A DNA stretch of 64,000 nt from IMG/VR virus record IMGVR_UViG_3300034283_001962, positions 54,408-118,407 of that record, one strand, 5' to 3'. Under the pieces are notes generated by a model, which was not told where the DNA came from, searched no databases, and saw only the letters and a list, made by a program, of their open reading frames with translations. The position numbers were made by a program, and so were the translations under genes. This document shows positions 9 through 47,074 of the stretch, piece by piece. The stretch is from a virus. The first letter of the stretch is position 1; every line of letters starts with the position of its first letter.

Positions 9-490
9 CATTATGTCCTATTGGTGTACCATGTTTAACAATTACCAATACTGTAGATCATGCATATTGGCTTGTAAACTATTTAGAAACTATTATTTCA
101 GCTTCAGTATGGCAACCGATAACAAGTGCTACTATAGCATTTGAGTACCGTAAATTGCTTAATAAGTACGCTCTGGAGACTACTGGTACAACAGATGGTG
201 TACAATGGCAGGGTCATGATTTCTCAATGAGAGGTATGTCTTCTTTACAATCAGCATGTTCTAGTGGTGCAGGTCATTTACTTTCATTTACTGGAAGTGA
301 CACTGTACCTGCTATTTCATTTCTGGAAGAATTCTATAATGCTGATGTTGAGAAAGAATTGATAGGTGCTTCTATACCGGCAACAGAACACAGTGTAGCT
401 TGTATGAGTAGTAATATAAATCAATATTCACAAGTTGAAGAAGAATTTGATGAATCAATAAATCAATGGAAAATTATCCGTTATTTTTAG
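9..490 (+). CDS. nadV: Nicotinamide phosphoribosyltransferase (NAMPT/NadV), N-terminal piece (exon running in from upstream of the window)
   Basis: Frame 2 reads LCPIGVPCLTITNT...WLVNYLETIISASVWQPITSAT...HDFSMRG...GHLLSFTGSDT...SIPATEHSV, typical NAMPT motifs. In-frame TAA at 2-4; ends at TAG 488-490. Confidence 0.88.
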
Positions 491-1103
491 TTCTTGATAA
501 ATTATCTTTTGCCCAAAGAGGTCGTTGATTTGTATAATGAAAACATTTCTTTTGTTCTTCTGGATTAGTTAAATCAAAAGTAAAACACGGTTTAATATGG
601 TCTATATGCCATTTACCATAGTTTTCCCAAGACATATCTTTATCCATGAGCTTAGAAATATAATCCTTAAAAAAATTAGGAGTACATCCAATAAGATTAA
701 AGGTTTTATCAGCTTTTCTGTTTCCTTTTAAAGCATGATGAACTCTTCTTCTAAGATTTCTTTTAATTTTAAAAGTAGGATCATTTTTATGTAAACGTTC
801 CCAATTTTTCTTATACTCTTTAATTTTCAAATTGTTAATATTACGATAATCTTTATCATAATTAGACTTTTCAGATTTATGAGATTTATAATAAGTTCTT
901 TTAGCTAATCTGTGTTTTTCAATATTTTTTTGATAATGAGATTTGCGAGTTTTATTGAACAAATCAGTGTTATTCTCTCTGTAATTTTTATTAATTAAAT
1001 TAATACAAACTTTACAGATAGAATTATAACCTGATTTAAATCTTTTATTTTTAGGAAAATTATCTAATTCTTTTTCAATATGACATTTTGTACATAATTT
1101 CAT
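474..1103 (-). CDS. Free-standing HNH homing endonuclease with N-terminal Zn ribbon (probable start MKLCTKC at 1103)
   Basis: CxxC...CxxC N-terminus; WHIDHIKP...CFHYTNQRPLWAKDNL HNH motif; antisense between the two nadV pieces. Confidence 0.85.
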   Translation of the reverse strand: MKLCTKCHIEKELDNFPKNKRFKSGYNSICKVCINLINKNYRENNTDLFNKTRKSHYQKNIEKHRLAKRTYYKSHKSEKSNYDKDYRNINNLKIKEYKKNWERLHKNDPTFKIKRNLRRRVHHALKGNRKADKTFNLIGCTPNFFKDYISKLMDKDMSWENYGKWHIDHIKPCFTFDLTNPEEQKKCFHYTNQRPLWAKDNLSRTKNNG

Positions 1104-1107
1104 TGTA

Positions 1108-1139
1108 CAAAAATACACAATGTACACATAACTACCAAA
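1108..1139 (-). promoter_or_regulatory. Bacteroidota-type promoter (TTTG-N20-TAnnTTTG) for the HNH gene, likely leaderless
   Basis: Minus strand TTTG (1139-1136), 20 nt, TATTTTTG (1115-1108), ATG at 1103. Confidence 0.6.
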
Positions 1140-1147
1140 TTATTTTT

Positions 1148-2140
1148 ATGGTAAATTCAAAAAAAGTAAGAACTAGATCTATAACAAAAACAGAACAGTT
1201 ATTTAAAGGTCAAAAAGATATGTTATTAAGACATTTTCAATTATATCCATCAGGTATTCTTGCTGAAGTTATGGATACTTGGAATCTTTGGCAAGTTCTT
1301 ACAGAACTTCTTCCTGATCCTGAAATTAAAGCAGCAATTCTAGCTAGAGATGGTAAGTTAGTTATACGTCCTGATTCTGGTGATCCTGTTGATATTATTT
1401 GTGGTAAACCTATTCCAGAATTTAATACATTAGAAGAAGCAGAAAAACATTTTTATAAAAATGTTTTTGTAAATGGGAATATTCTTTTCAGGTTAAATGG
1501 AGAATTAAGACAAGTTATTACTCATTCTGGAAATACATTTATGAGTCAACTTCTTAAGCAATTTCCTCAAGATAAAGGTGTTATTGAATTGCTTTGGGAT
1601 GTATTTGGTGGTACAGTAAACGAACAAGGTTATAAAGTACTTGATCCACACATAGGAGCTATTTACGGAGATTCAATTACATTAGGTAGAGCTACTGAAA
1701 TCTGTGAACGTTTAAAAGCTAAAGGGTTTGCAAGTACTAATATTGTATTAGGTATAGGTTCATTTACCTACCAGTACAATACTCGTGATACTTTTGGGTT
1801 TGCTGTTAAAGCTACTTATGGTGAAGTACTTCAAGAAACAGGTGTGATATTAACAACATATCCTTCTAAAAAAGAGATGAAACCTGTAGGTCGTGAAATC
1901 TTTAAAAATCCTATTACTGATGATGGTACTAAGAAATCAGCCAAAGGGTTACTTCGTGTAGATCATGTTGTAAAAGTTGATTCTTTAGGTGATGTAGTAA
2001 GTCATGAGTATAAACTTGTTGACCAAGTATCTAAAGAAGAGGAAAAGCAAGGAGCATTAGAAACAGTATTTCTTAATGGAAAACTTGTTAAATTGCAAAG
2101 TTTATCAGAAATTCGCAAAAGATTATCTAAAAACTTATAA
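1148..2140 (+). CDS. nadV: NAMPT C-terminal piece (probable start MVNSKK at 1148)
   Basis: YPSGI...DTWNLW, LVIRPDSGDP, GAIYGDSIT, NIVLGIGSFTYQYNTRDT, KKSAKG motifs. Confidence 0.9.
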   Translation: MVNSKKVRTRSITKTEQLFKGQKDMLLRHFQLYPSGILAEVMDTWNLWQVLTELLPDPEIKAAILARDGKLVIRPDSGDPVDIICGKPIPEFNTLEEAEKHFYKNVFVNGNILFRLNGELRQVITHSGNTFMSQLLKQFPQDKGVIELLWDVFGGTVNEQGYKVLDPHIGAIYGDSITLGRATEICERLKAKGFASTNIVLGIGSFTYQYNTRDTFGFAVKATYGEVLQETGVILTTYPSKKEMKPVGREIFKNPITDDGTKKSAKGLLRVDHVVKVDSLGDVVSHEYKLVDQVSKEEEKQGALETVFLNGKLVKLQSLSEIRKRLSKNL

Positions 2141-5370: not shown

Positions 5371-6034
5371 TAAAGTCGGACCCGCTATATAGGAATATAT
5401 AGGCAATAATTGGGAGAATTGCTGGAACGCTAAGGATTTATATCTATGCTAATCAGCAGCCGAGCTTCAAGGAAGTTTGAAGAAGGTTCAGAGACTAGGG
5501 ATACTACGGTAAGCCCATAGCACCCAACATCCAGAACGGATGATGATATAGTCCAACATCTATTGAAAAATAGAGAGTTAAAAGTTTGGAGATGTAGTAT
5601 ATTTACCCTATCTTCGTATTAAATAATACGTATGAACTGGGATTATATTACAGGTTTTTTTGATGCAGATGGTTCTATTAGTTTAGTTCGACAGAACAAA
5701 AATAGAGAACGTGCACCTCAAATTTCATTTCATAATAATGAACTGAATATTCTAGAAAATATTCAAAGTTTTATTAAAAAAGAATTGAATATTATAGGTC
5801 ATATTTCTAAGAAAAAGAAAGCTAAAGAACATCATGGTCAACAATATGATTTAAAGTATCACGGTTTTCCAAAATGTATTGTAATTGGAAGTAAATTAAG
5901 AAGTATTCATCAAAAGAAAATTAAAAGAATACTTTTAAGTGAACTTATTCATAAGATAACTCCTAGAAACGGTAAATATAGTGAACAAACACTTAAAACC
6001 AGATCAGAGTTAGAACTCAAATTTTTAAATTAAG
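5371..6034 (+). mobile_element. Group I intron in the tmRNA T-loop
   Basis: P1 GGGTT/GACCC with U-G wobble; P10 AGTCG/CGACT; core AATTGCTGGAA, AATCAGCAG, TCAGAGACTA, GATATAGTCC; terminal G at 6034. Confidence 0.9.
5632..6033 (+). CDS. Intron-encoded single-motif LAGLIDADG homing endonuclease
   Basis: YITGFFDADGSI motif; TAA stop sits directly before the intron's terminal G. Confidence 0.88.
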   Translation: MNWDYITGFFDADGSISLVRQNKNRERAPQISFHNNELNILENIQSFIKKELNIIGHISKKKKAKEHHGQQYDLKYHGFPKCIVIGSKLRSIHQKKIKRILLSELIHKITPRNGKYSEQTLKTRSELELKFLN

Positions 6035-9425: not shown

Positions 9426-9470
9426 GATCATAATATGAAACATTAAGGCGGGAAAATATCTTTGAAATAG

Positions 9471-9501
9471 TTTGCATAATCAAAATAAGGTTGTATATTT
9501 G
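9471..9501 (+). promoter_or_regulatory. Promoter TTTG-N19-TATATTTG heading the operon that contains the mini-array
   Basis: TTTG 9471-74, TATATTTG 9494-9501. Confidence 0.7.
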
Positions 9502-9520
9502 TAAGACAAAAGCAAACAAA

Positions 9521-9718: not shown

Positions 9719-9996
9719 AAGTTAGGAAACCAAGCAAGCTAAGAATATTGGCAAAGAAAATACTGGGGAATTACGCCCTGTATTATACAAAAGAATTTGA
9801 GTGGCAAATGAAGTTGCCGAAAAATGGTGATCAAATAAAAATAACATGGTTTCCGGACAACAGAGGAGCAACAAACGCTTATATTGGGATGTCTGGAGTA
9901 GTTGAAAATATGAATATTAACGATGGTCATTTTATATTGAATTGTGGAAATTGTATACTTATTTGTAGTGGCGATTTTAATTACATTAGATTATGA
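9703..9996 (+). CDS. Hypothetical protein
   Basis: ORF track; overlaps neighbours. Confidence 0.55.
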   Translation: MEAEIKVRKPSKLRILAKKILGNYALYYTKEFEWQMKLPKNGDQIKITWFPDNRGATNAYIGMSGVVENMNINDGHFILNCGNCILICSGDFNYIRL

Positions 9997-10145
9997 AACA
10001 GGGCGGCAAACGTGAGGGGGCAGGCAGACCAAAGAAACATGGTGAACCAACCACTACAATCGCTTTCCGCTGCCCTGTATCTAAAGTTGATGAATTGAAA
10101 AAAATAATTAACACAAAACTGGCCAAGTGGGCAATAAAAAAATGA
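9993..10145 (+). CDS. 50-aa DNA-binding protein (GGKREGAGRPK motif, AT-hook/RHH-like); not in ORF track
   Basis: MKQGGKREGAGRPKKHGEPTTTIAFRCPVSKVDELKKII...; ATGA coupling at both ends. Confidence 0.7.
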   Translation: MKQGGKREGAGRPKKHGEPTTTIAFRCPVSKVDELKKIINTKLAKWAIKK

Positions 10146-10486
10146 ACAGACAACAAAAAATTGCAGAGCTGAAAGCTCAGATAGCTGAACTTGAAAAGAT
10201 CACACCGGAAGAAAGGTTTTTAGAGTTGATCGACGGCATGACCGTGAAAATTGACAAAGACAATTACCCGAATTCGACTTTCTTTTTTAAGGGTGATACG
10301 TGTTATTTAGAACTTGAAAAATCAAGATTATGGGTTAGATATGCTGAAATCTGGCAGGTTTTTAAAGTTGAATTTGGGATGCAGTATGATGAAATCCAGT
10401 CGTTTATAAAAGATCAGATGGAACAACACTTCAAAATGATGGGGGGAGTAACACCCGACCGAATGACATGGACGGATCAAATGTGA
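10142..10486 (+). CDS. Hypothetical protein whose C-terminus is encoded by repeat 1 + spacer 1 of the mini-array
   Basis: MNRQQKIAEL...KDQ-MEQHFKMMGGVTP-DRMTWTDQM*. Confidence 0.75.
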   Translation: MNRQQKIAELKAQIAELEKITPEERFLELIDGMTVKIDKDNYPNSTFFFKGDTCYLELEKSRLWVRYAEIWQVFKVEFGMQYDEIQSFIKDQMEQHFKMMGGVTPDRMTWTDQM

Positions 10487-10578
10487 TGGAACAACACTTC
10501 AAAATGATGGGGGGAGTAACACCTGAAGTAATAAACTGGGTAGTAGCTTTGCTGGTGGAACAACACTTTAAAAAATGA
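10417..10578 (+). CRISPR. CRISPR-like mini-array: two identical 39-nt repeats plus a degenerate partial third, with two spacers (29 and 30 nt); no cas genes in window
   Basis: Repeat GATGGAACAACACTTCAAAATGATGGGGGGAGTAACACC at 10417-55 and 10485-523; partial GGTGGAACAACACTTTAAAAAATGA at 10554-78. Spacer 1 (10456-84) is identical to 46968-46996. Confidence 0.75.
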
Positions 10579-10681
10579 ACAAATGGCCTTTTTACAAAGC
10601 GATTGGTAGGACTTGGAAATTCGAAGCTGCTAAATATTACAACCGGGGTAAACTTATGCGTAAAATTAAAACTGAAAAGAC

Positions 10682-10921
10682 ATGGAAAAGAAACTGACAG
10701 CGGTAGAGTGGTTTTTAAATGAACTACAAAGGATGCAATACTTTATTGGCAATGATATGTTACAAGCCTATAACCAAGCCATCGCAATGGAGAAGGAGCA
10801 GCACGAAAAAACAGCTTTACATTTTTCAGAAAAGGTACTTGACCACATTCAAGATGATAAAGGGTGGGAAGGCGGAGATTTTGAGTTTAAAAATTACTAC
10901 AATAAAACCTACGGCAAATGA
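10682..10921 (+). CDS. Small hypothetical protein (KLTAVEW...YYNKTY family)
   Basis: Paralog of 8167-8415. Confidence 0.65.
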   Translation: MEKKLTAVEWFLNELQRMQYFIGNDMLQAYNQAIAMEKEQHEKTALHFSEKVLDHIQDDKGWEGGDFEFKNYYNKTYGK

Positions 10922-11151
10922 CAAAAGAATCTATTGTTGAGTTACAAAAAATAGACTGTAACTGCAATGACTGTATCCATATGAACAGAGATATTGCTAA
11001 GTATGAATCTTTTAACTCTCTGTATAGGGGGACTAACCCATCACACCGGGTACTTTATGGACACTGTTCTCTAAAAAATATACAAGTGTCTTTTATAGCC
11101 AATACTTGTCAGATACATACTCAATCTTGCTTTAAGCATAGAAGGGATTAA
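10918..11151 (+). CDS. Cys-rich hypothetical protein
   Basis: IDCNCNDC...GHC...NTCQ...CFKHRR. Confidence 0.65.
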   Translation: MTKESIVELQKIDCNCNDCIHMNRDIAKYESFNSLYRGTNPSHRVLYGHCSLKNIQVSFIANTCQIHTQSCFKHRRD

Positions 11152-26195: not shown

Positions 26196-26936
26196 ATGTT
26201 GTTATATACTGAAACAGAAGACGGAAATAAAGAGCTGATTACAGAAGCTCAATATACAAGATTAAAGGGAGCCGATTGGTTTCCTTTATCTTATAAAAAG
26301 CCTATTATGATACTTGGTCAAGGAGGAATTGGTTCATGGGCTAGCATATTTTATTCACGAATTGGTTGTATCATTCACAGTTATGATATGGATAACTTTG
26401 AAGATCATAATATGACTGGTCAATTTGTTATGAATAAAGATACAGGAAAAGCTAAAGTTGAAGCTGTAGCTAATTTAGTAAAAGATTTCTCTCCAGATGC
26501 AGAAATCTATGCAAATAATACTGCATATACAACTGATTCTCCAACATCAGATATAGTTATATGTGGGTTTGACAATATGAAAGCTCGTAAATTAGCTTTT
26601 TTAAAATGGGTAGATTATGTAATGAATAAAGCTCCAGATAAATCTAAGTGTTTTTTTCAAGATGGAAGACTACTTGCTGAAACACTGCAGATTTTTAATA
26701 TTTCAGGAAATGATCTTGAGAAGATCAAAATGTATTATAATGAGCATTTGTTTGATGATGCTGAAGTAGAAGAAGCTGACTGTACATTCAAACAAACCTC
26801 TCATTGTGCTGGAATGATAGCTTCTCATATGGTAGGATTTTTCACAAACTGGCTCTCAAAGAGTTATACAGGAGTATTTCGAACTGTACCTTTTTTGTAT
26901 CAATATGTTATACCTTTAAATAGACATGAATCATGA
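26196..26936 (+). CDS. ThiF/E1-like adenylating enzyme
   Basis: ILGQGGIGSW, YDMD, KAKVEA, CGFDNMKAR, DGRL. Confidence 0.88.
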   Translation: MLLYTETEDGNKELITEAQYTRLKGADWFPLSYKKPIMILGQGGIGSWASIFYSRIGCIIHSYDMDNFEDHNMTGQFVMNKDTGKAKVEAVANLVKDFSPDAEIYANNTAYTTDSPTSDIVICGFDNMKARKLAFLKWVDYVMNKAPDKSKCFFQDGRLLAETLQIFNISGNDLEKIKMYYNEHLFDDAEVEEADCTFKQTSHCAGMIASHMVGFFTNWLSKSYTGVFRTVPFLYQYVIPLNRHES

Positions 26937-31299: not shown

Positions 31300-31617
31300 A
31301 TGAGTAAAGAAGAAAAACAAGAAAATAAGTTGTTTTTTGATTATAAAGTTACATCTTGGAGAAGGATTTATTTAAGTGATGAATCTAAAAAAGAGGAAAT
31401 CTTAAAAATACTGGAAGAAAACAAAAGTAAAATCTTAGAATCAAATAATCTTGCTGAATACATTCCAGATTTTTACGACAAGCACTTTGTACAAGATGAG
31501 TTACTTTACGAAATAAGTGAAGATATGACTCCTAATATGAATGAAGGAGAAGCCACTATAGAATTTTGTGAAGAAATCAGTAATAGAACAGACATATTAT
31601 GGACAAATAAACTTTAA
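31300..31617 (+). CDS. Hypothetical protein
   Basis: ORF track. Confidence 0.55.
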   Translation: MSKEEKQENKLFFDYKVTSWRRIYLSDESKKEEILKILEENKSKILESNNLAEYIPDFYDKHFVQDELLYEISEDMTPNMNEGEATIEFCEEISNRTDILWTNKL

Positions 31618-31621
31618 CAAT

Positions 31622-32056
31622 ATGATATTTGATTATAAAGAAGAAGAAGAAGAAAAAAAAGGCAGAGCTGATCGGTTTAATGATAGTAAACGTCAATGGA
31701 ACTTGATGCATTTACCTTCATTCGAACCTATGGTTCAAGTTCTGGAGTATGGTGCTAAGAAGTATAGTCCTAATCAATGGAAAAAAGGGTTTCCTATTAC
31801 TGAAATCTATGATTCTCTAATGCGTCACATGATTGCTTTTATGAATGGTGAAGACAATGATCCAGAATCAGGACTTCCTCACATTGGACATATACAGTGC
31901 AATATCATGTTTATGGCTTATGTAAAAGAAAATCATCCTAAGTTTGATGATAGACTTACAGTTATAAATTTTACACCATTAGTAAATATAAATAATAGCA
32001 TTTCACTAAATGGAATAACTTTAGAAAATGTAAATATTTCTAATGGTATAGATTAA
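31622..32056 (+). CDS. dATP/dGTP diphosphohydrolase domain protein (DUF5664-like)
   Basis: VLEYGAKKYSPNQWKKG...SLMRH...DPESGLPHIGHIQCN. Confidence 0.8.
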   Translation: MIFDYKEEEEEKKGRADRFNDSKRQWNLMHLPSFEPMVQVLEYGAKKYSPNQWKKGFPITEIYDSLMRHMIAFMNGEDNDPESGLPHIGHIQCNIMFMAYVKENHPKFDDRLTVINFTPLVNINNSISLNGITLENVNISNGID

Positions 32057-33973: not shown

Positions 33974-35080
33974 ATGGCAAGAACATCAAAAAGTACTGAG
34001 AATCAAGCAGGTAAGTCAAAGCTTGATGAATCACTAGCTCGATTAAATAAAGAATATGGACAAGGTTCTGTTTTTAGAATTGGAGACAATCCTTCAATAG
34101 AAGTAACTGATTTTATTAGTACAGGCAGTTTAAATCTAGACAGAGCTGTAGGAGTAAATGGATTACCAACTGGTAGAATTGTTGAAATTTATGGTCCTGA
34201 ATCTTCAGGTAAAACAACTATCTGTTTACATGTTATAAAAGAAGCACAGAAAAAGAGTAAAAAAGCTGCATTTGTAGATATGGAAAATGCACTTGATTTA
34301 AAGTATGCTTCAGATATTGGGGTAGATGTTAAGAATCTTATCTTTGCACAACCTAATTATGGTGAAGAAGCTTTAAATATAGTAAAAGAATTATGTTTAT
34401 CAGGTGAAGTTGGAGTAATTATAATAGATTCTGTTGCAGCTCTTGTTCCTAAAACAGAAGCAGATGGCGAAGTAGGTGATAGTAATGTAGGAAAACAAGC
34501 TAGAATGATTTCTCAAGCTATGCGTATTCTTACTCCTATTGTACATAAAAGTGGAACATTAGTTATTTTTACTAACCAAATTAGAATGAAAATTGGTGTA
34601 ATGTTTGGGTCACCAGAAACTACTGCAGGTGGTGAAGCACTTAAGTTTTTTGCATCTGTACGTCTTGATGTACGTAAATCTGTACAACGAGAAGACGGTG
34701 TAGCAACTTCTAATAAAATAAAAGTAAAAGTTGTAAAAAATAAAGTAAGTATACCATTTAGAGAAGCAGAATTTTTTATTATTTATGGAAAAGGTATTGA
34801 TAAATTGCAAGAAATTATAGATATTGCAGTTGAATCTAATATTATTCAAAAATCAGGTAGTTGGTATGCTTATGGAAACGATAAGTTAGGACAAGGTGAA
34901 GATAGTATAAAACAACTAATGATTGATAATGAAGACTTTTATAATGAAATTGAAAAAAAAGTACAGGAGGTATTAAATGGGAAGAAAGAAGAAAATAGAC
35001 TTGCAAGCGTTGGAGAAAGTGGAGATACAGAAACCATTGGAATCAAACTCACTGACGATGAAGACAGCATTATATCTTGA
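33974..35080 (+). CDS. recA: RecA recombinase
   Basis: GRIVEIYGPESSGKTT, DSVAALVP, NQIRMKIGVMFGSPETT. Confidence 0.95.
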   Translation: MARTSKSTENQAGKSKLDESLARLNKEYGQGSVFRIGDNPSIEVTDFISTGSLNLDRAVGVNGLPTGRIVEIYGPESSGKTTICLHVIKEAQKKSKKAAFVDMENALDLKYASDIGVDVKNLIFAQPNYGEEALNIVKELCLSGEVGVIIIDSVAALVPKTEADGEVGDSNVGKQARMISQAMRILTPIVHKSGTLVIFTNQIRMKIGVMFGSPETTAGGEALKFFASVRLDVRKSVQREDGVATSNKIKVKVVKNKVSIPFREAEFFIIYGKGIDKLQEIIDIAVESNIIQKSGSWYAYGNDKLGQGEDSIKQLMIDNEDFYNEIEKKVQEVLNGKKEENRLASVGESGDTETIGIKLTDDEDSIIS

Positions 35081-35522
35081 TGATATAAGAACACCTATTG
35101 AAACTCCTGAAGGATATGAATGGGTAATAGTAAGATCATATGACGAATTTGTAAATTATTTAACAGAATTTTACAGGAGTAAAAGAAAACTTCCAGAAAT
35201 GATCTTTTTTGATCATGATTTAAGCGAAGAACATATGAACTTTTATTATAATAATCCTAAGTTTAGTCTTATTCGTTATGAAGAATTTAAAGAAAAAACA
35301 GGATTACATTGTGCTAAATGGTTAACTTTGTTATGTGAAAAAAATAAAATTGATTTGCGAGAATCAAAATTATATGTACATTCACATAATCCTATTGGAG
35401 CTAATAATATACAACATTGGTTAAACTATTATCTAAAATTACAATACGGTGGTGAGTTTTCATCATGTGTAATTCATAAAGTAAAATTTAAAATAGACAA
35501 TACAAATGACAGTAAAATTTAA
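35058..35522 (+). CDS. Cyclic-phosphate-processing receiver domain protein
   Basis: LYLDDIR, FDHDL, KTGLHCAKW, VHSHNPIGA. Confidence 0.75.
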   Translation: MKTALYLDDIRTPIETPEGYEWVIVRSYDEFVNYLTEFYRSKRKLPEMIFFDHDLSEEHMNFYYNNPKFSLIRYEEFKEKTGLHCAKWLTLLCEKNKIDLRESKLYVHSHNPIGANNIQHWLNYYLKLQYGGEFSSCVIHKVKFKIDNTNDSKI

Positions 35523-46253: not shown

Positions 46254-46748
46254 TCAAACTTTGCTTTTTATGATAATCATATCATGCGGTGCAGGTATAT
46301 TACCGCCAAAGTATGCCCCTAGTTTATACCCCACCATAATCGTATGTTTTTGAACTGTTACGCTTTTACTGCATCGAAACCCCTTGTTATCTGTCACCAC
46401 GAAAACATACAACCCTTTTTCAACGTATATGCGATAGTTATAAAAGGCACCCATCTTTACCTGGCAAACAAATTGAGACATCCTTTCACCACGGCTGTAG
46501 ACATATGCCCATATCTCCATTGCTTCCGTATCAGTATTCCATCTCCAACAAAACCTGGCAGACTCCTTGTGATGGTGCGGCCAGTAGCCGACCCCAAACA
46601 GCTTGTTTAAATCCATCTGATCACTGGTCTTCAAATCGTACTTACACGAATAGTCAAAGCATATCTGCTTACTGACAGATTTTGAAAACACCAGCCCCAA
46701 GCTGCGTGGCTTGAAGCGGTGTTCAGATGCTTTGACTTTGTAGTTCAA
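46254..46748 (-). CDS. Hypothetical beta-rich protein
   Basis: NKLFG...SARFCWRW...YFGG..PAPHDM; higher GC than its flanks. Confidence 0.6.
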   Translation of the reverse strand: MNYKVKASEHRFKPRSLGLVFSKSVSKQICFDYSCKYDLKTSDQMDLNKLFGVGYWPHHHKESARFCWRWNTDTEAMEIWAYVYSRGERMSQFVCQVKMGAFYNYRIYVEKGLYVFVVTDNKGFRCSKSVTVQKHTIMVGYKLGAYFGGNIPAPHDMIIIKSKV

Positions 46749-47074
46749 TTGATCGGGTTTGTGGTGGTTCCTAATGGACCGCTATGAAATACGCCCAGGA
46801 TCAGCAATGCCGCAATAATAAACGCTGCTGTAATTGCGATCTTATACCAGTTTGCTCTGTTGCCGTTTTCAGCATTAGGAAAAATGGAATCTTTTGCACT
46901 AGCTACTAAAAAACCTGCTGCGCTTAGAAGGCATACCCAGCCGCCTATTTTGTTTCCAATAGGTGCACGACCGAATGACATGGACGGATCAAATGTTGCA
47001 TAAGCCATAACGGCAATAATAAGTGCCGCAATGATTAAGACGATAGGGTTTGCCCCGTTGTTACTTTTTTTCAT
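46745..47074 (-). CDS. Three-TM membrane protein; contains the exact match (46968-46996) to mini-array spacer 1
   Basis: Three hydrophobic helices; the match covers the TFDPSMSFGR loop. Confidence 0.7.
   Translation of the reverse strand: MKKSNNGANPIVLIIAALIIAVMAYATFDPSMSFGRAPIGNKIGGWVCLLSAAGFLVASAKDSIFPNAENGNRANWYKIAITAAFIIAALLILGVFHSGPLGTTTNPIN

Follow-up and report, generated by a model that had tools for sequence, protein, structure and literature searches.

Short CRISPR arrays without cas genes have previously been known in viruses from a few archaeal viruses and from database surveys. The portogloboviruses SPV1 and SPV2 of Saccharolobus carry cas-less mini-arrays of one or two spacers (Medvedeva et al. 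2019, PMC6858448; review PMC11656645), which are intergenic, with a host-like leader and with repeats matching known host arrays (PMC6858448). A survey of viral repeat units counts 2,103 units of all CRISPR types except type VI (PMC10651486); some of them may overlap with the phage family treated here. For crAss-like phages, Yutin et al. use the term CRISPR array solely for host arrays, not for arrays on the phages, and among the papers listed by our literature search none describes the latter. Among bacterial systems, type VI-B combines 36-nt repeats with 30-nt spacers (Smargon et al., 10.1101/092577), the VI-B arrays of Flavobacterium columnare adapt in trans via the type II-C Cas1-Cas2 (Hoikkala et al. 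2021, PMC8092290), and transcription of II-C arrays is reported to start at promoters within their repeats and to run towards the leader (PMC8092290).

Our analysis confirms a genuine phage-borne, cas-less repeat-spacer array of CRISPR type in a complete 118-kb crAss-like lake phage (CheckV: 100% complete). In the following, "the window" is the whole stretch of 64,000 nt that was analysed from this genome, and all coordinates refer to it. The relevant features are:

9457..9501, + strand: candidate promoter, a TTG 32 nt before a -7-like box TATATTTG (9494-9501)
10127..10486, + strand: ORF1, 119 aa from GTG at 10127 or 114 aa from ATG at 10142
10417..10455, + strand: repeat 1, 39 nt (36 nt in relatives), translated in the ORF1 frame as MEQHFKMMGGVTP
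10456..10484, + strand: spacer 1, 29 nt, the newest and ORF-proximal spacer, identical to 46968-46996
10485..10523, + strand: repeat 2, an exact duplicate of repeat 1
10524..10553, + strand: spacer 2, 30 nt, the older spacer, with no target found
10554..10577, + strand: truncated terminal repeat, overlapping the start codon (10575) of the next ORF
46745..47074, - strand: target gene, a 109-aa hydrophobic protein of unassigned function in the - strand late/structural block
46968..46996, + strand: protospacer of spacer 1, within the late gene and not flanked by repeat sequence

The layout given in the first-pass annotation, two exact 39-nt repeats and a degenerate third separated by spacers of 29 and 30 nt, was re-found. 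Repeats 1 and 2 are identical copies with a start-to-start distance of 68 nt, the third copy from 10554 keeps only the first 22-24 nt (four mismatches in 22), and the two spacers show no kinship with each other. The window repeat aligns to the 36-nt repeat of the related metagenome contig L001 with three extra bases. Besides the array and the protospacer, the 118,407-bp genome holds no additional copy of the repeat, of repeat halves or of either spacer, so that the lack of a spacer 2 match first noticed by eye extends to the whole genome. Tandem Repeats Finder reports nothing at the array locus, and the array is therefore not a tandem duplication. Within a locus the repeats are constant in length and sequence (window, L001, L083, L086, L113 and L114). 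Spacers are unique and of near-constant length, in the relatives mostly 29-30 nt with a few of 33-36 nt beside degenerate copies. Units are gained at the leader end, older distal spacers are shared, and the terminal repeat is decayed to about 20-24 nt. These are general properties of CRISPR arrays; a non-coding AT-rich leader, together with co-resident cas genes or a known host system with a matching repeat, was not found. The array is also no assembly artefact: independent unitigs back both repeat-spacer junctions. Among the contigs of run X1, the probable source sample, one unitig leads from the repeat into spacer 1 (10426-10484) at depth 4.0 and a separate one from spacer 1 into the repeat (10455-10514) at depth 2.6, the flanks having a depth of 5.7. 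Three further lake runs likewise contain window-type contigs that show 0 differences, stop at 10446 and resume at 10494.

The array is fused to ORF1, whose last codons are repeat 1 plus spacer 1 and whose stop (10484-10486) arises at the joint of spacer 1 and repeat 2. No Pfam, PHROGs or PADLOC match was obtained for ORF1, the ESM Atlas returned unnamed clusters only (<0.8), and the AlphaFold2 model is helical and of low confidence (mean pLDDT 60, below 50 in the tail from residue 103). Compared to the L001 homologue, ORF1 shows 4 synonymous and 10 non-synonymous codon differences. The ORF in the leader position evolves fast, and we know of no CRISPR leader that is such an ORF. A host-type promoter had been placed at 9471-9501 in the first-pass annotation; in a sigma-70 scan it did no better than chance (5 sites found vs 6.2 expected). 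The 9426-9517 intergenic gap, which precedes the + strand run of genes containing the array, does hold a TTG...TATATTTG pair of the Bacteroidota promoter type at 9457-9501, but such a motif is frequent, with 47 occurrences on the + strand of the window. The nearest promoter-like site lies about 900 nt upstream of the array.

Both the fusion of the array to a conserved ORF and its membership in a very large module family were overlooked by the first interpretation. A profile search with ORF1 yielded 987 representatives at E<=1e-3, which form a large unannotated phage family. Among 150 listed representatives, a 12-aa stretch (at least 9 of 12 identical) recurs at an offset of 22 aa in 50 and at other offsets between 15 and 30 in none; in 50 of the 150 the called gene runs on through 2-4 units, and 100 have a single unit within the ORF. 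At the DNA level, 36-nt repeats, spacers of 29-36 nt (29-30 in most cases) and truncated last repeats are seen in nine other IMG/VR contigs. The units do not preserve the reading frame, with a period of 68 in the window and of 65 in one L086 interval and in both L113 intervals, and with an in-frame stop in the L001 spacer. Conservation at third codon positions is 0.85 in the first 22 nt of the repeat vs 0.59 in the preceding 60 nt of the ORF (10 loci, one of them mis-registered by a base). Several paralogous modules occur within one phage genome, and an HNH gene stands beside one module copy only. Judged from these sequences, the module of gene plus array is widespread in large phages. No paper was found for the peptide motifs of the family.

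Spacer turnover is directly visible among close relatives. Window and L001 are 93% identical in the ORF part, 399/400 in the downstream flank and 24/24 in the terminal repeat (L086 has a similar truncation), while the intervening spacer is identical at only 7 of 30 positions; this is cassette replacement and not drift. The 12-aa repeat unit is present in 38 of 38 close ORF1 homologues (15 of the 16 in a first set, P0016 being set aside, plus 23 further ones), which share about 20 different 10-aa inter-repeat stretches among them. The ORF, the repeat of 36 nt and the truncation of the last repeat are retained in the relatives, which carry about 20 different 30-nt spacers. Across homologous loci, spacers differ and repeats are conserved, as the first-pass annotation had wished to see checked. 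Gain was seen three times. The array of P0029 is that of P0005 plus one additional ORF-proximal spacer. A diverged version of spacer 2 (translated xxxNWVVAxx) is the first spacer in P0010, P0032, P0033 and P0034, and the window array consists of this type of first spacer plus spacer 1, which is absent from those arrays. Finally, near-identical paralogues in one phage record (L083/L101) differ by one ORF-proximal 66-nt unit of spacer and repeat. In these comparisons the unit is always gained next to the ORF, which is the polarity of CRISPR adaptation. At the other end, a trailer-end unit ..PRPEMPQFPTDR is common to P0003, P0011, P0015 and P0033. Longer homologues of ORF1 were not found, and P0003 and P0015 are the only cases of other ORFs built from the repeat peptide. 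Searches for DNA relatives gave one irrelevant 67-nt match among INPHARED phages, 0 and then 9 unrelated coding matches in IMG/VR with the window repeat core, and none in a single-protein search of IMG/VR with ORF1; a scan of metagenomes brought two true relatives, L001 and L002, and with L003 an unrelated gene.

Spacer 1 recurs on the same strand at 46968-46996 (29/29; two matches in 0 of 100 shuffles), and the claim that it copies a late gene of the phage itself, the target being free of repeat sequence, proved correct. So did the antisense relation: the target ORF lies on the - strand, and an array RNA would be + strand and thus antisense to the target mRNA. The location of the target "near the lysis genes" found no backing, because neither PHROGs nor Pfam gives a match for the target gene or its neighbours; PADLOC does not match the target gene. 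Three relatives of the gene were found in IMG/VR. The protospacer is exact in the sibling phage contig L077/L082 from IMG/VR, has 3 mismatches in L081 and at least 8 in L080. TGCA flanks, initially thought to be shared, give way to TGCG, GGCA and GGCG on one side in the relatives. Escape by PAM mutation was considered, as the sole two differences between window and L077 in a 95-nt identical block lie at protospacer -1 and -4, and was rejected because four phages show all four combinations of these two synonymous sites. Against INPHARED, spacer 2 and the L001 spacer matched noise only. Programmatic comparison of the relatives' spacers with the window phage genome, at a strict threshold, gave no match except spacer 1. 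The L086 and L083 array regions matched other arrays in five viral records and no protospacers, nor did relatives' spacers find a target in the partial records that carry them; a target is known for only 1 of roughly 25 testable spacers. The array thus is, as in viral mini-arrays, short, cas-less and equipped with a spacer matching a related phage exactly (L077/L082), and it departs from them in the 29/29 self-match of the carrier, the two sites probably lying on one molecule.

A six-frame HMM search of the phage genome detected no Cas1, Cas9 or Cas13b, Pfam (128 ORFs) and PADLOC (48 ORFs) found no cas genes, and the Cas13b profile NF038190 had 0 matches in the phage genome and in five related viral records. 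On the bacterial side, an exact 21-mer of the window repeat variant, searched in 185,579 species genomes, had 14 single matches in coding genes, several of them recA, and none in an array. BLAST of the repeat against 401 sampled Bacteroidota genomes returned noise only, three TGGAAC motifs at a period of 65-67 gave 0 arrays and 2 chance singles in 401 Cytophagales genomes, and three TTTCAAAWTG motifs at the same period gave 0 in 401 Bacteroidota genomes. Searching 5 bacterial genomes, among them the 4 that have class 2 arrays, yielded no ORF1 homologue. The phage host is probably a member of the Bacteroidota. The phage RecA was tried as a host marker and is uninformative, because it is 53-55% identical to all five genomes tried.

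The phage repeats resemble Bacteroidota class 2 repeats. The specific label type VI-B, put forward in the first-pass annotation, is unproven, because a small model of Cas13b repeats fails on them, the hairpin does not extend across the family and the searches turned up no host array. What stood of this claim is the sequence similarity: the repeat of L083 is identical to the Cas13b repeat of genome G435 in 26 of 37 alignment columns (hand-counted), both begin with 5' G.TGGAAC and have ..TTGGAGGGT..ACAAC in the 3' half, and phage repeats compared to true Cas13b repeats reach z = 4.2-5.0 against shuffles, significant in both orientations. The VI-B dimensions (36-nt repeat, 30-nt spacer) are those of the relatives, the window having 39 nt and a newest spacer of 29 nt. 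Like VI-B, moreover, the phage array is without its own Cas1-Cas2, would be transcribed from the leader side and would yield a guide complementary to mRNA. The ends, the covariance model and the search for a linked Cas13b, in contrast, did not bear the label out. The complementary 5'-GUUG and CAAC-3' ends of VI-B are missing from the + strand, where the repeats end in GGUG...CACC in L001 (complementary, both sides changed), GAUG...CACC in the window and GGUG...CAAC in L083/L086. The loop on the folding + strand is A-rich (AAAAU or AAAUU) with the poly-U on the - strand, and no Cas13b is linked. The covariance model rests on 11 repeats from 3 genomes and is hence narrow; it gives a true array 52.8 bits and had no match on the window, L001, L083 and L086 repeats even when filters were off, and Rfam had none for phage repeats. 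The L001 repeat folds at -9.3 kcal/mol on the + strand (2 of 200 shuffles as good) vs -3.5 kcal/mol on the opposite strand, in a shape like that of true Cas13b repeats in transcribed orientation (-11.2 and -9.4). The 39-nt window repeat folds at -5.2 kcal/mol (matched by 55 of 200 shuffles), those of L083 and L086 at -2.9 and -2.7 kcal/mol (about 100 of 200), and the L001 hairpin is not kept in distant family members.

Likeness to type II-C is of a similar kind. The II-C array of G787/L076, an example from the Flavobacteriaceae that has Cas9 and Cas1 beside it, shares the 36-nt repeat and the 30-nt spacers with the phage. Its repeat agrees with that of L083 at 21 of 36 positions (ungapped hand count), with similar ends and an identical 10-mer in register, TTTCAAATTG at repeat positions 13-22. 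In type II crRNAs the first 22 nt of the repeat pair with the tracrRNA, and it is in its first 22 nt that conservation of the phage repeat is concentrated. The truncated last repeat of the phage (~22 nt) also suits a type II crRNA better, as a Cas13b crRNA keeps the full 36-nt repeat 3' of the spacer. Unlike II-C, the phage offers no anti-repeat or tracrRNA candidate (no other repeat copy on either strand) and no linked Cas9. A tracrRNA-like anti-repeat was also sought beside the II-C array of G787, where the matches were further array copies only.

Of the first interpretation, the cas-less phage array, the conserved repeats with varying spacers, the self-derived spacer and the antisense relation hold, and the VI-B type is not established. 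We lean towards a host-dependent, cas-less mini-array of CRISPR type that forms one module with ORF1 and is aimed at sibling phages, the self-match being accidental. The first repeat is formed by the last 36 nt of the gene (39 nt here), which puts the gene in the position of the leader. Each new unit consists of a 29-30-nt spacer plus a fresh copy of the first repeat and is inserted gene-proximally, and the distal repeat decays with its first ~22 nt retained, a pattern that matches Cas1-Cas2 integration. Because the complete phage genome is without cas genes, the integrase and any effector must on this reading be those of the Bacteroidota host, presumably those of a II-C- or VI-B-like class 2 system in which repeats measure 36 nt and spacers 30 nt. 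The array would probably be co-transcribed with the + strand early genes and then cut into guide RNAs, the newest of which would be complementary to the late membrane-protein mRNA of the carrier and of sibling phages from the same lakes. The array's anatomy, the turnover of spacers, the polarised gain, the lack of cas genes and the module across the family are shown by the sequences; the involvement of host Cas1-Cas2, transcription, processing, effector type and function we infer. By analogy to known viral mini-arrays, the most likely use would be the exclusion of related phages, and the exact self-match most likely arose by accident, when the adaptation machinery of the host took up DNA of the replicating phage itself. 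Rarity of the cognate effector, or a poor handle in the form of the aberrant 39-nt repeat, might explain why the self-match is tolerated. Counting against this explanation are the failure to find a bacterial array or cas locus with the phage repeat, the lack of a match to the Cas13b covariance model and to Rfam, the hairpin that does not beat shuffles in L083, L086 and the window repeat, the known target of a single spacer, the exact self-match and the ORF as leader; the paralogous modules per genome and the co-variation of repeats with the 3' end of the gene fit a phage-intrinsic mechanism equally.

Such a mechanism, in which the ORF1-family protein, alone or with an unrecognised factor of phage or host, would recognise the 3' end of its own gene and drive the 30-nt insertions or use the resulting RNAs independently of host Cas, draws on the constancy of the gene-array linkage across the 987 representatives, down to about 35% identity. 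Repeats that are identical within a locus and vary between loci together with the protein's C-terminus, several modules in one phage genome, bacterial genomes with class 2 arrays yet no ORF1 homologue, scans without a cognate host array and nucleotide-level conservation across the first 22 nt of the repeat all agree with it. Nevertheless, an ORF1 protein of ~100 aa that bears neither a nuclease nor an integrase signature, and whose helical model is of low confidence, is improbable as an integrase, no other candidate enzyme is conserved beside the module in the loci examined (the HNH gene being confined to one copy), and the 36 + 30 geometry, the polarity, the decaying last repeat and the II-C/VI-B likeness are products of host class 2 systems; we regard it as distinctly unlikely. 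The same gene-embedded repeat might instead act as an RNA decoy or anti-CRISPR, Racr-like or as a competing crRNA-like RNA, that mimics the host repeat and soaks up a host Cas effector early, the spacers being non-targeting by-products of the host integrase. That origin would account for the self-derived spacer as well as for the targetless others, and the minimal and commonest state of the module is one full plus one truncated repeat (L001; P0002 and P0006 with 10 cluster members), in line with the single unit in two thirds (100/150) of the listed representatives. The array lies within the early + strand block behind a plausible host-type promoter, and precedents exist in viral solitary repeats and mini-arrays with one Racr shown to be functional (PMC10651486) and in Cas-competing viral crRNA-like RNAs reported in a preprint (10.1101/2024.10.29.618823). 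A decoy is unlikely all the same, as genome scans found no host repeat to mimic, the repeat sits within a coding region and not behind its own promoter like solitary repeat units, spacer 1 exactly matches a co-occurring sibling phage, and the solitary repeats surveyed are of all CRISPR types but type VI (PMC10651486).

A reading at the protein level, with repeats encoding a C-terminal peptide with hypervariable 10-aa linkers and selection acting on the tail and not on RNA, can point to 36 + 30 = 66 nt being divisible by three, to the read-through of 2-4 units in a third (50/150) of the listed representatives and to the family-wide conservation of the unit peptide. It is largely refuted by the broken frames (68 nt with the stop at 10484-10486 in the window, 65 nt in L086/L113, the stop in the L001 spacer). 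The L001 truncated last repeat is conserved at 24/24 though it lies beyond the stop, synonymous sites are conserved in the first 22 nt of the repeat, the tail is predicted to be disordered (pLDDT <50), and spacer 1 reproduces exactly a piece of an unrelated gene, in another reading frame; we hold this reading to be highly improbable. Strain mixing, finally, concerns the self-match and leaves the array real: the array of one strain would have been joined to the late gene of a co-occurring sibling, so that no single genome would hold both spacer 1 and an intact protospacer. The phage genome is a metagenome assembly with about 5-6x depth in the likely source run, at least two related strains occur together in other lake runs, with the array flank of one variant showing 13 differences and a protospacer flank of the sibling type also present, and known viral mini-arrays avoid self-matches (PMC6858448). 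In run X1, on the other hand, only one version of the array flank (0 differences) is seen among the pieces listed. Just one of these pieces covers the protospacer, at depth 5.4; it agrees exactly over 10455-10484, and its flank is the one common to both phage types, which differ in the flank on the opposite side. Depths at the array flanks and at the protospacer are similar (5.4-5.7), and proteins with a spacer-1 tail occur in 4 sequence records beyond the window (P0001, P0017, P0018 and P0038). We judge strain mixing to be very unlikely, though short-read contigs cannot phase sites 36 kb apart.

Returning to the host-dependent mini-array, it could tentatively be seen as one case of an unannotated class, in which a small gene ends in a CRISPR-type repeat and leads an adaptation-competent cas-less array, comprising hundreds of 50%-identity clusters; this generalisation is possible but doubtful. 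From the sequences at hand, some jumbo-phage genomes seem to have more than one copy of such a module. Should the partner prove to be Cas13b or II-C, virulent Bacteroidota phages would here be seen for the first time to hijack an RNA- or DNA-targeting class 2 system on a wide scale, and this would, if true, include phage-borne type VI-like guides, which are missing from the 2,103 units of the survey (PMC10651486). If there is no host partner, a new kind of phage-autonomous repeat-spacer system tied to the ORF1 protein would be at hand. The comparative data offer a direct view of ongoing one-end spacer gain in a gene-fused array, and such fused modules are common in large environmental phages yet hidden by the read-through of gene callers. 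The module provides a natural setting in which to test adaptation in trans on viral DNA, and it bears on the effect of a self-targeting guide on its carrier virus and on the use of Cas9 or Cas13b by phage against phage. It also holds a warning, as many metagenomic "hypothetical proteins" with odd repeated tails are mis-called arrays.

Ectopic "neo-CRISPR" integration of spacers by Cas1-Cas2 at non-CRISPR sites was reportedly described by Nivala et al. in 2018. The phage module is similar in that a repeat-length duplication flanks a spacer inserted at a non-canonical site, here within a gene; it differs in that the site is conserved, reused across a gene family and subject to several rounds of gain, and is by no means a one-off scar. 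With Racr the module shares a phage-borne CRISPR-like repeat without cas genes, its minimal state being a full plus a truncated repeat. Racr is a non-coding RNA with its own promoter (Camara-Wilpert et al. 2023, PMC10651486); the phage repeat lies inside an ORF and its spacers are gained and lost. Accordingly, the single, non-coding, self-promoted repeat of a solitary unit is not what is seen at this locus, where a repeat inside ORF1 is followed by spacers and further repeats. Close parallels also exist in SPV1 and SPV2. They likewise have no viral cas genes, their relatives carry different spacers at the same locus, implying turnover, and their spacers match close viruses of the same habitat, with adaptation and interference presumed to be borrowed from the host. 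Relatives of the phage module have up to 3 spacers, compared with 1-2 in the portoglobovirus arrays. The differences are that in the phage the 3' end of a conserved protein-coding gene doubles as the first repeat and no matching host array is known, that SPV1 and SPV2 infect archaea while the lake phage is crAss-like with a bacterial host (Bacteroidota, as inferred above), and that the SPV carriers have their own protospacers mutated or deleted (PMC6858448), whereas the lake phage shows an exact self-match.

A CRISPR-like mini-array stands at the 3' end of a small phage gene. Sequence reading of positions 10200-10800 and a repeat finder returned the structure that the first-pass annotation had described, two identical repeats and a degenerate third with two unrelated spacers between them, within a long run of + strand genes:

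Features of the array and of its self-match (window positions)
10127-10486, + strand: ORF1, ending in repeat 1
10417-10455, + strand: repeat 1, 39 nt, same as repeat 2
10456-10484: spacer 1, 29 nt
10485-10523, + strand: repeat 2, 39 nt
10524-10553: spacer 2, 30 nt
from 10554, + strand: third repeat, first 22-24 nt kept, 4 mismatches in 22
46745-47074, - strand: protospacer-bearing ORF, 109 aa
46968-46996: protospacer of spacer 1

Tandem Repeats Finder reported no tandem array at the locus, and beyond the array and the spacer 1 protospacer no further resemblance to the repeat, its halves or either spacer was found in the whole 118,407-bp genome. Contigs from four lake-water runs were aligned to positions 9900-11100. 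The joints from repeat to spacer 1 (depth 4.0) and from spacer 1 to repeat (depth 2.6; flanks 5.7) are each spanned by a unitig of their own in the probable source run, and in the three other runs window-type contigs with 0 differences break and resume at just the points where a de Bruijn graph would be interrupted by a repeated 31-mer. This rules out an assembly artefact as the source of the array.

The in-frame translation of repeat 1 is MEQHFKMMGGVTP; nine further ORF1 codons come from spacer 1, and the stop codon spans the joint of spacer 1 and repeat 2. Because the unit measures 68 nt, repeat 2 is read in a different frame, by a spurious 36-aa ORF. ORF1 has no match in Pfam, PHROGs or PADLOC and no homologue in five bacterial genomes tried, and no mention of the peptide motifs of its family was found in the literature searched. 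Its AlphaFold2 model is poor (pLDDT 60), with a tail predicted to be disordered.

Our comparison set comprised 16 homologous metagenome proteins and 23 further cluster members; with P0016 set aside, 38 proteins were compared. An N-terminal part of about 100 aa is common to the homologues and is followed by 1-4 copies of a 12-aa unit; the 10-aa stretches between units vary by protein, with about 20 different ones among the 38. DNA of the metagenome contig L001 was set against that of the window:

Identity between L001 and the window
Downstream of the array: 399/400
Truncated last repeat: 24/24
ORF part: 93%
Its one 30-nt spacer, which holds an in-frame stop: 7/30

Spacers thus vary while repeats are conserved in homologous loci, a check that had been proposed for this array. 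Against L001, divergence jumps at the array (93% identity over 10142-10416 on the ORF side, 99.75% over 10554-10953), which suggests a recombination boundary between strains. The array of homologue P0029 equals that of P0005 plus one extra spacer on the ORF side; likewise, spacer 1 of the window lies on the ORF side of the spacer that comes first in P0010, P0032, P0033 and P0034, and a trailer-side unit is common to P0003, P0011, P0015 and P0033. ORF-side gain and a shared trailer are characteristic of arrays in which spacers integrate next to the leader and the first repeat is duplicated each time. Since the repeat duplicated in the window is an aberrant 39-nt form, three bases longer than that of L001, integration copied the repeat end to end and did not measure 36 nt.

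The family is wide. A profile of close homologues, searched against 1.84 billion representatives, matched 987 proteins at E<=1e-3 (318 at E<=1e-10). Among the 150 listed of these 987, the 12-aa unit is found again at the C-terminus (VEEHFKLKGVTP and many variants), identical inside one protein and different from protein to protein; in 50 of the 150 a 12-aa window (at least 9/12 identical) recurs exactly 22 residues further on, and in none does it recur at another offset from 15 to 30. IMG/VR phage contigs (L083-L087, L111-L114) have the DNA anatomy of the window. Repeat 1 forms the end of the ORF, the repeats measure 36 nt and most spacers 29-30 nt (period 65-66 nt), and a last repeat shortened to about 20 nt adjoins the start codon of the next gene. 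Across ten loci, one mis-registered by a base, conservation at third codon positions is 0.85 in repeat positions 1-22 versus 0.59 in the preceding 60 nt of the ORF, and repeat positions 23-31 are variable. Selection therefore falls on the nucleotides of positions 1-22, the part remaining in the truncated last repeat.

Several paralogous modules of ORF1 and array occur together in some records that are fragments of very large phages (L083:4001-4300 and L101:808-1561 in one IMG/VR record; G1178 at about 46.6, 48.5 and 73.1 kb). In one record a near-identical paralogue pair differs by a single 66-nt spacer and repeat unit on the ORF side. One module copy lies directly behind a 105-aa HNH endonuclease gene, and the 639,979-bp (640-kb) IMG/VR viral contig L112 has a diverged copy with repeat GGTAAGTGAACATTTCAAATTGAGGGTGGACACAAC. 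The top profile matches, P0040 (588 aa), P0041 (760 aa) and P0042 (864 aa), are long proteins with 5-6 separate ORF1-profile matches; they could be paralogues in tandem that were run together into a single ORF, or genuinely multi-domain.

Spacer 1 recurs once in the one assembled record, on the same strand and over 29 nt without mismatch, and none of 100 shuffles held two matches; the reported exact self-copy stands. Its target ORF is on the - strand, so a + strand array RNA would be antisense to the target mRNA, in the geometry originally proposed. The spacer also has an exact match in a sibling phage from IMG/VR, whose sequence surrounding the site is 91% identical, and shows 3 mismatches to a second sibling and 8 or more to a third. 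No targets were found for spacer 2 (as first noted for the window, and now in the whole 118,407-bp genome), for the L001 spacer, for relatives' spacers searched as peptides or for the L083 and L086 spacers. PAM escape by two substitutions adjoining the protospacer was rejected, as these are freely varying synonymous sites.

The repeat had also been likened to type VI-B (Cas13b) repeats, which passages of a preprint describe as 36 nt long with GUUG/CAAC ends and a poly-U loop, standing 3' of 30-nt spacers (10.1101/092577). Such arrays occur in 4 of 401 sampled Flavobacteriaceae genomes: two adjoin Cas13b (NF038190, E = 1e-251 and 5e-264), a third combines a VI-B-like repeat with no called Cas13b, and the fourth is a II-C locus that has Cas9 and Cas1. 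In genome G715 (L074, G715:C8:28000-44000) VI-B-like 36-nt repeats are grouped in several short blocks, and a TnpB-like ORF (390 aa) intervenes; a Cas13b match was not found within 16 kb, and a nearby 982-aa ORF has no NCBIfam match. In the authentic Cas13b array of genome G435, two 88-89-nt units (L073:10393-10481 and 10578-10665) match the repeat model end to end, fitting the "long direct repeat" of the same preprint passages.

Part of the likeness holds. Phage repeats resemble Cas13b repeats above shuffles (z 4.2-5.0), and the L001 repeat is predicted to fold at -9.3 kcal/mol on the + strand versus -3.5 on the opposite strand, resembling Cas13b repeats in transcribed orientation (-11.2 and -9.4 versus -5.7 and -5.5 kcal/mol). 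By hand count the L083 repeat shares 26/37 alignment columns with one Cas13b repeat; with the II-C repeat it shares 21/36 ungapped positions, among them a 10-mer that is identical and in register. However, the similarity exists in both orientations, the phage ends are GGUG/CACC, the + strand loop is A-rich, and a narrow covariance model from 11 Cas13b repeats did not match the phage repeats. Rfam found nothing on them, and for the 39-nt window repeat and those of L083 and L086 the predicted folding is no stronger than in shuffled sequences. Reduced to its first ~22 nt, the last repeat would remain usable for a type II crRNA but not for one of Cas13b. Given these mixed points, the phage repeats are filed as Bacteroidota class 2-like, with no subtype assigned.

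The record, rated complete by CheckV, has Pfam matches to crAss capsid and tail-ring proteins, a P22-type portal, RecA, ribonucleotide reductase and others, and is therefore assigned to a crAss-like phage; all 24 runs holding the locus (24/24) are lake or freshwater metagenomes. That the array is cas-less was confirmed by Pfam (128 ORFs), PADLOC (48 ORFs, every large unknown ORF included) and six-frame HMM searches of the phage genome for Cas13b, Cas1 and Cas9. The promoter-like site closest to the array, previously called host-type, does have a TTG 32 nt 5' of TATATTTG, which we take to fit the Bacteroidota promoter consensus, but the motif is frequent and a sigma-70 scan was not above chance. 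No + strand terminator was found between this candidate and the array. A free-standing LAGLIDADG homing endonuclease ORF (window 5632-6030) lies 4.4 kb upstream of the array. A nicotinamide/nicotinate phosphoribosyltransferase gene is in three pieces (NAMPT_N, NAPRTase, NAPRTase; genome 53241-53582, that is L020:15241-15582, window 155-487 and window 1088-2137) interrupted by a - strand ORF (477-1127); the split could be an intron or homing-element insertion. Three unusual accessory genes (window 31568-32053, 34977-35519, 26196-26933) encode a dATP/dGTP diphosphohydrolase N-domain protein, a cyclic-phosphate-processing receiver (cREC_REC) domain protein overlapping the recA end, and a ThiF-family protein.

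Exact matching of a 21-mer of the window repeat against all 185,579 species genomes gave single coding-gene matches only and no array. BLAST and periodic-motif scans, run on three samples of 401 genomes each, did not find one either, and searches for ORFs derived from arrays gave nothing new. As lake Bacteroidota are poorly represented in these samples, the missing host array is absence of evidence only.

The best-supported reading is a host-dependent viral mini-array as in archaeal viruses, which would be maintained by in-trans adaptation. Its self-match would have arisen by accident when adaptation drew on abundant phage DNA, perhaps tolerated through an uncommon effector or a 39-nt repeat that is a poor handle. 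Strain mixing is a rival source of the self-match: the sibling-type protospacer flank co-occurs with the window-type strain in the same lake runs, and spacer 1 and its target may lie on different molecules. A protein-level repeat is largely refuted by the broken reading frames. A decoy role of the phage repeat (PMC10651486) and a phage-autonomous mechanism tied to ORF1 compete with the host-dependent array; the viral units in the survey of PMC10651486 include none of type VI.

Host-dependent mini-arrays are described for archaeal viruses in PMC6858448 and in the review PMC11656645, and in-trans adaptation is shown for cas1/2-less VI-B arrays in PMC8092290. New in the phage array are the fusion to a conserved gene, the very wide spread in large phages and the exact self-match, which sets it apart from the archaeal mini-arrays, whose carriers avoid self-matches.
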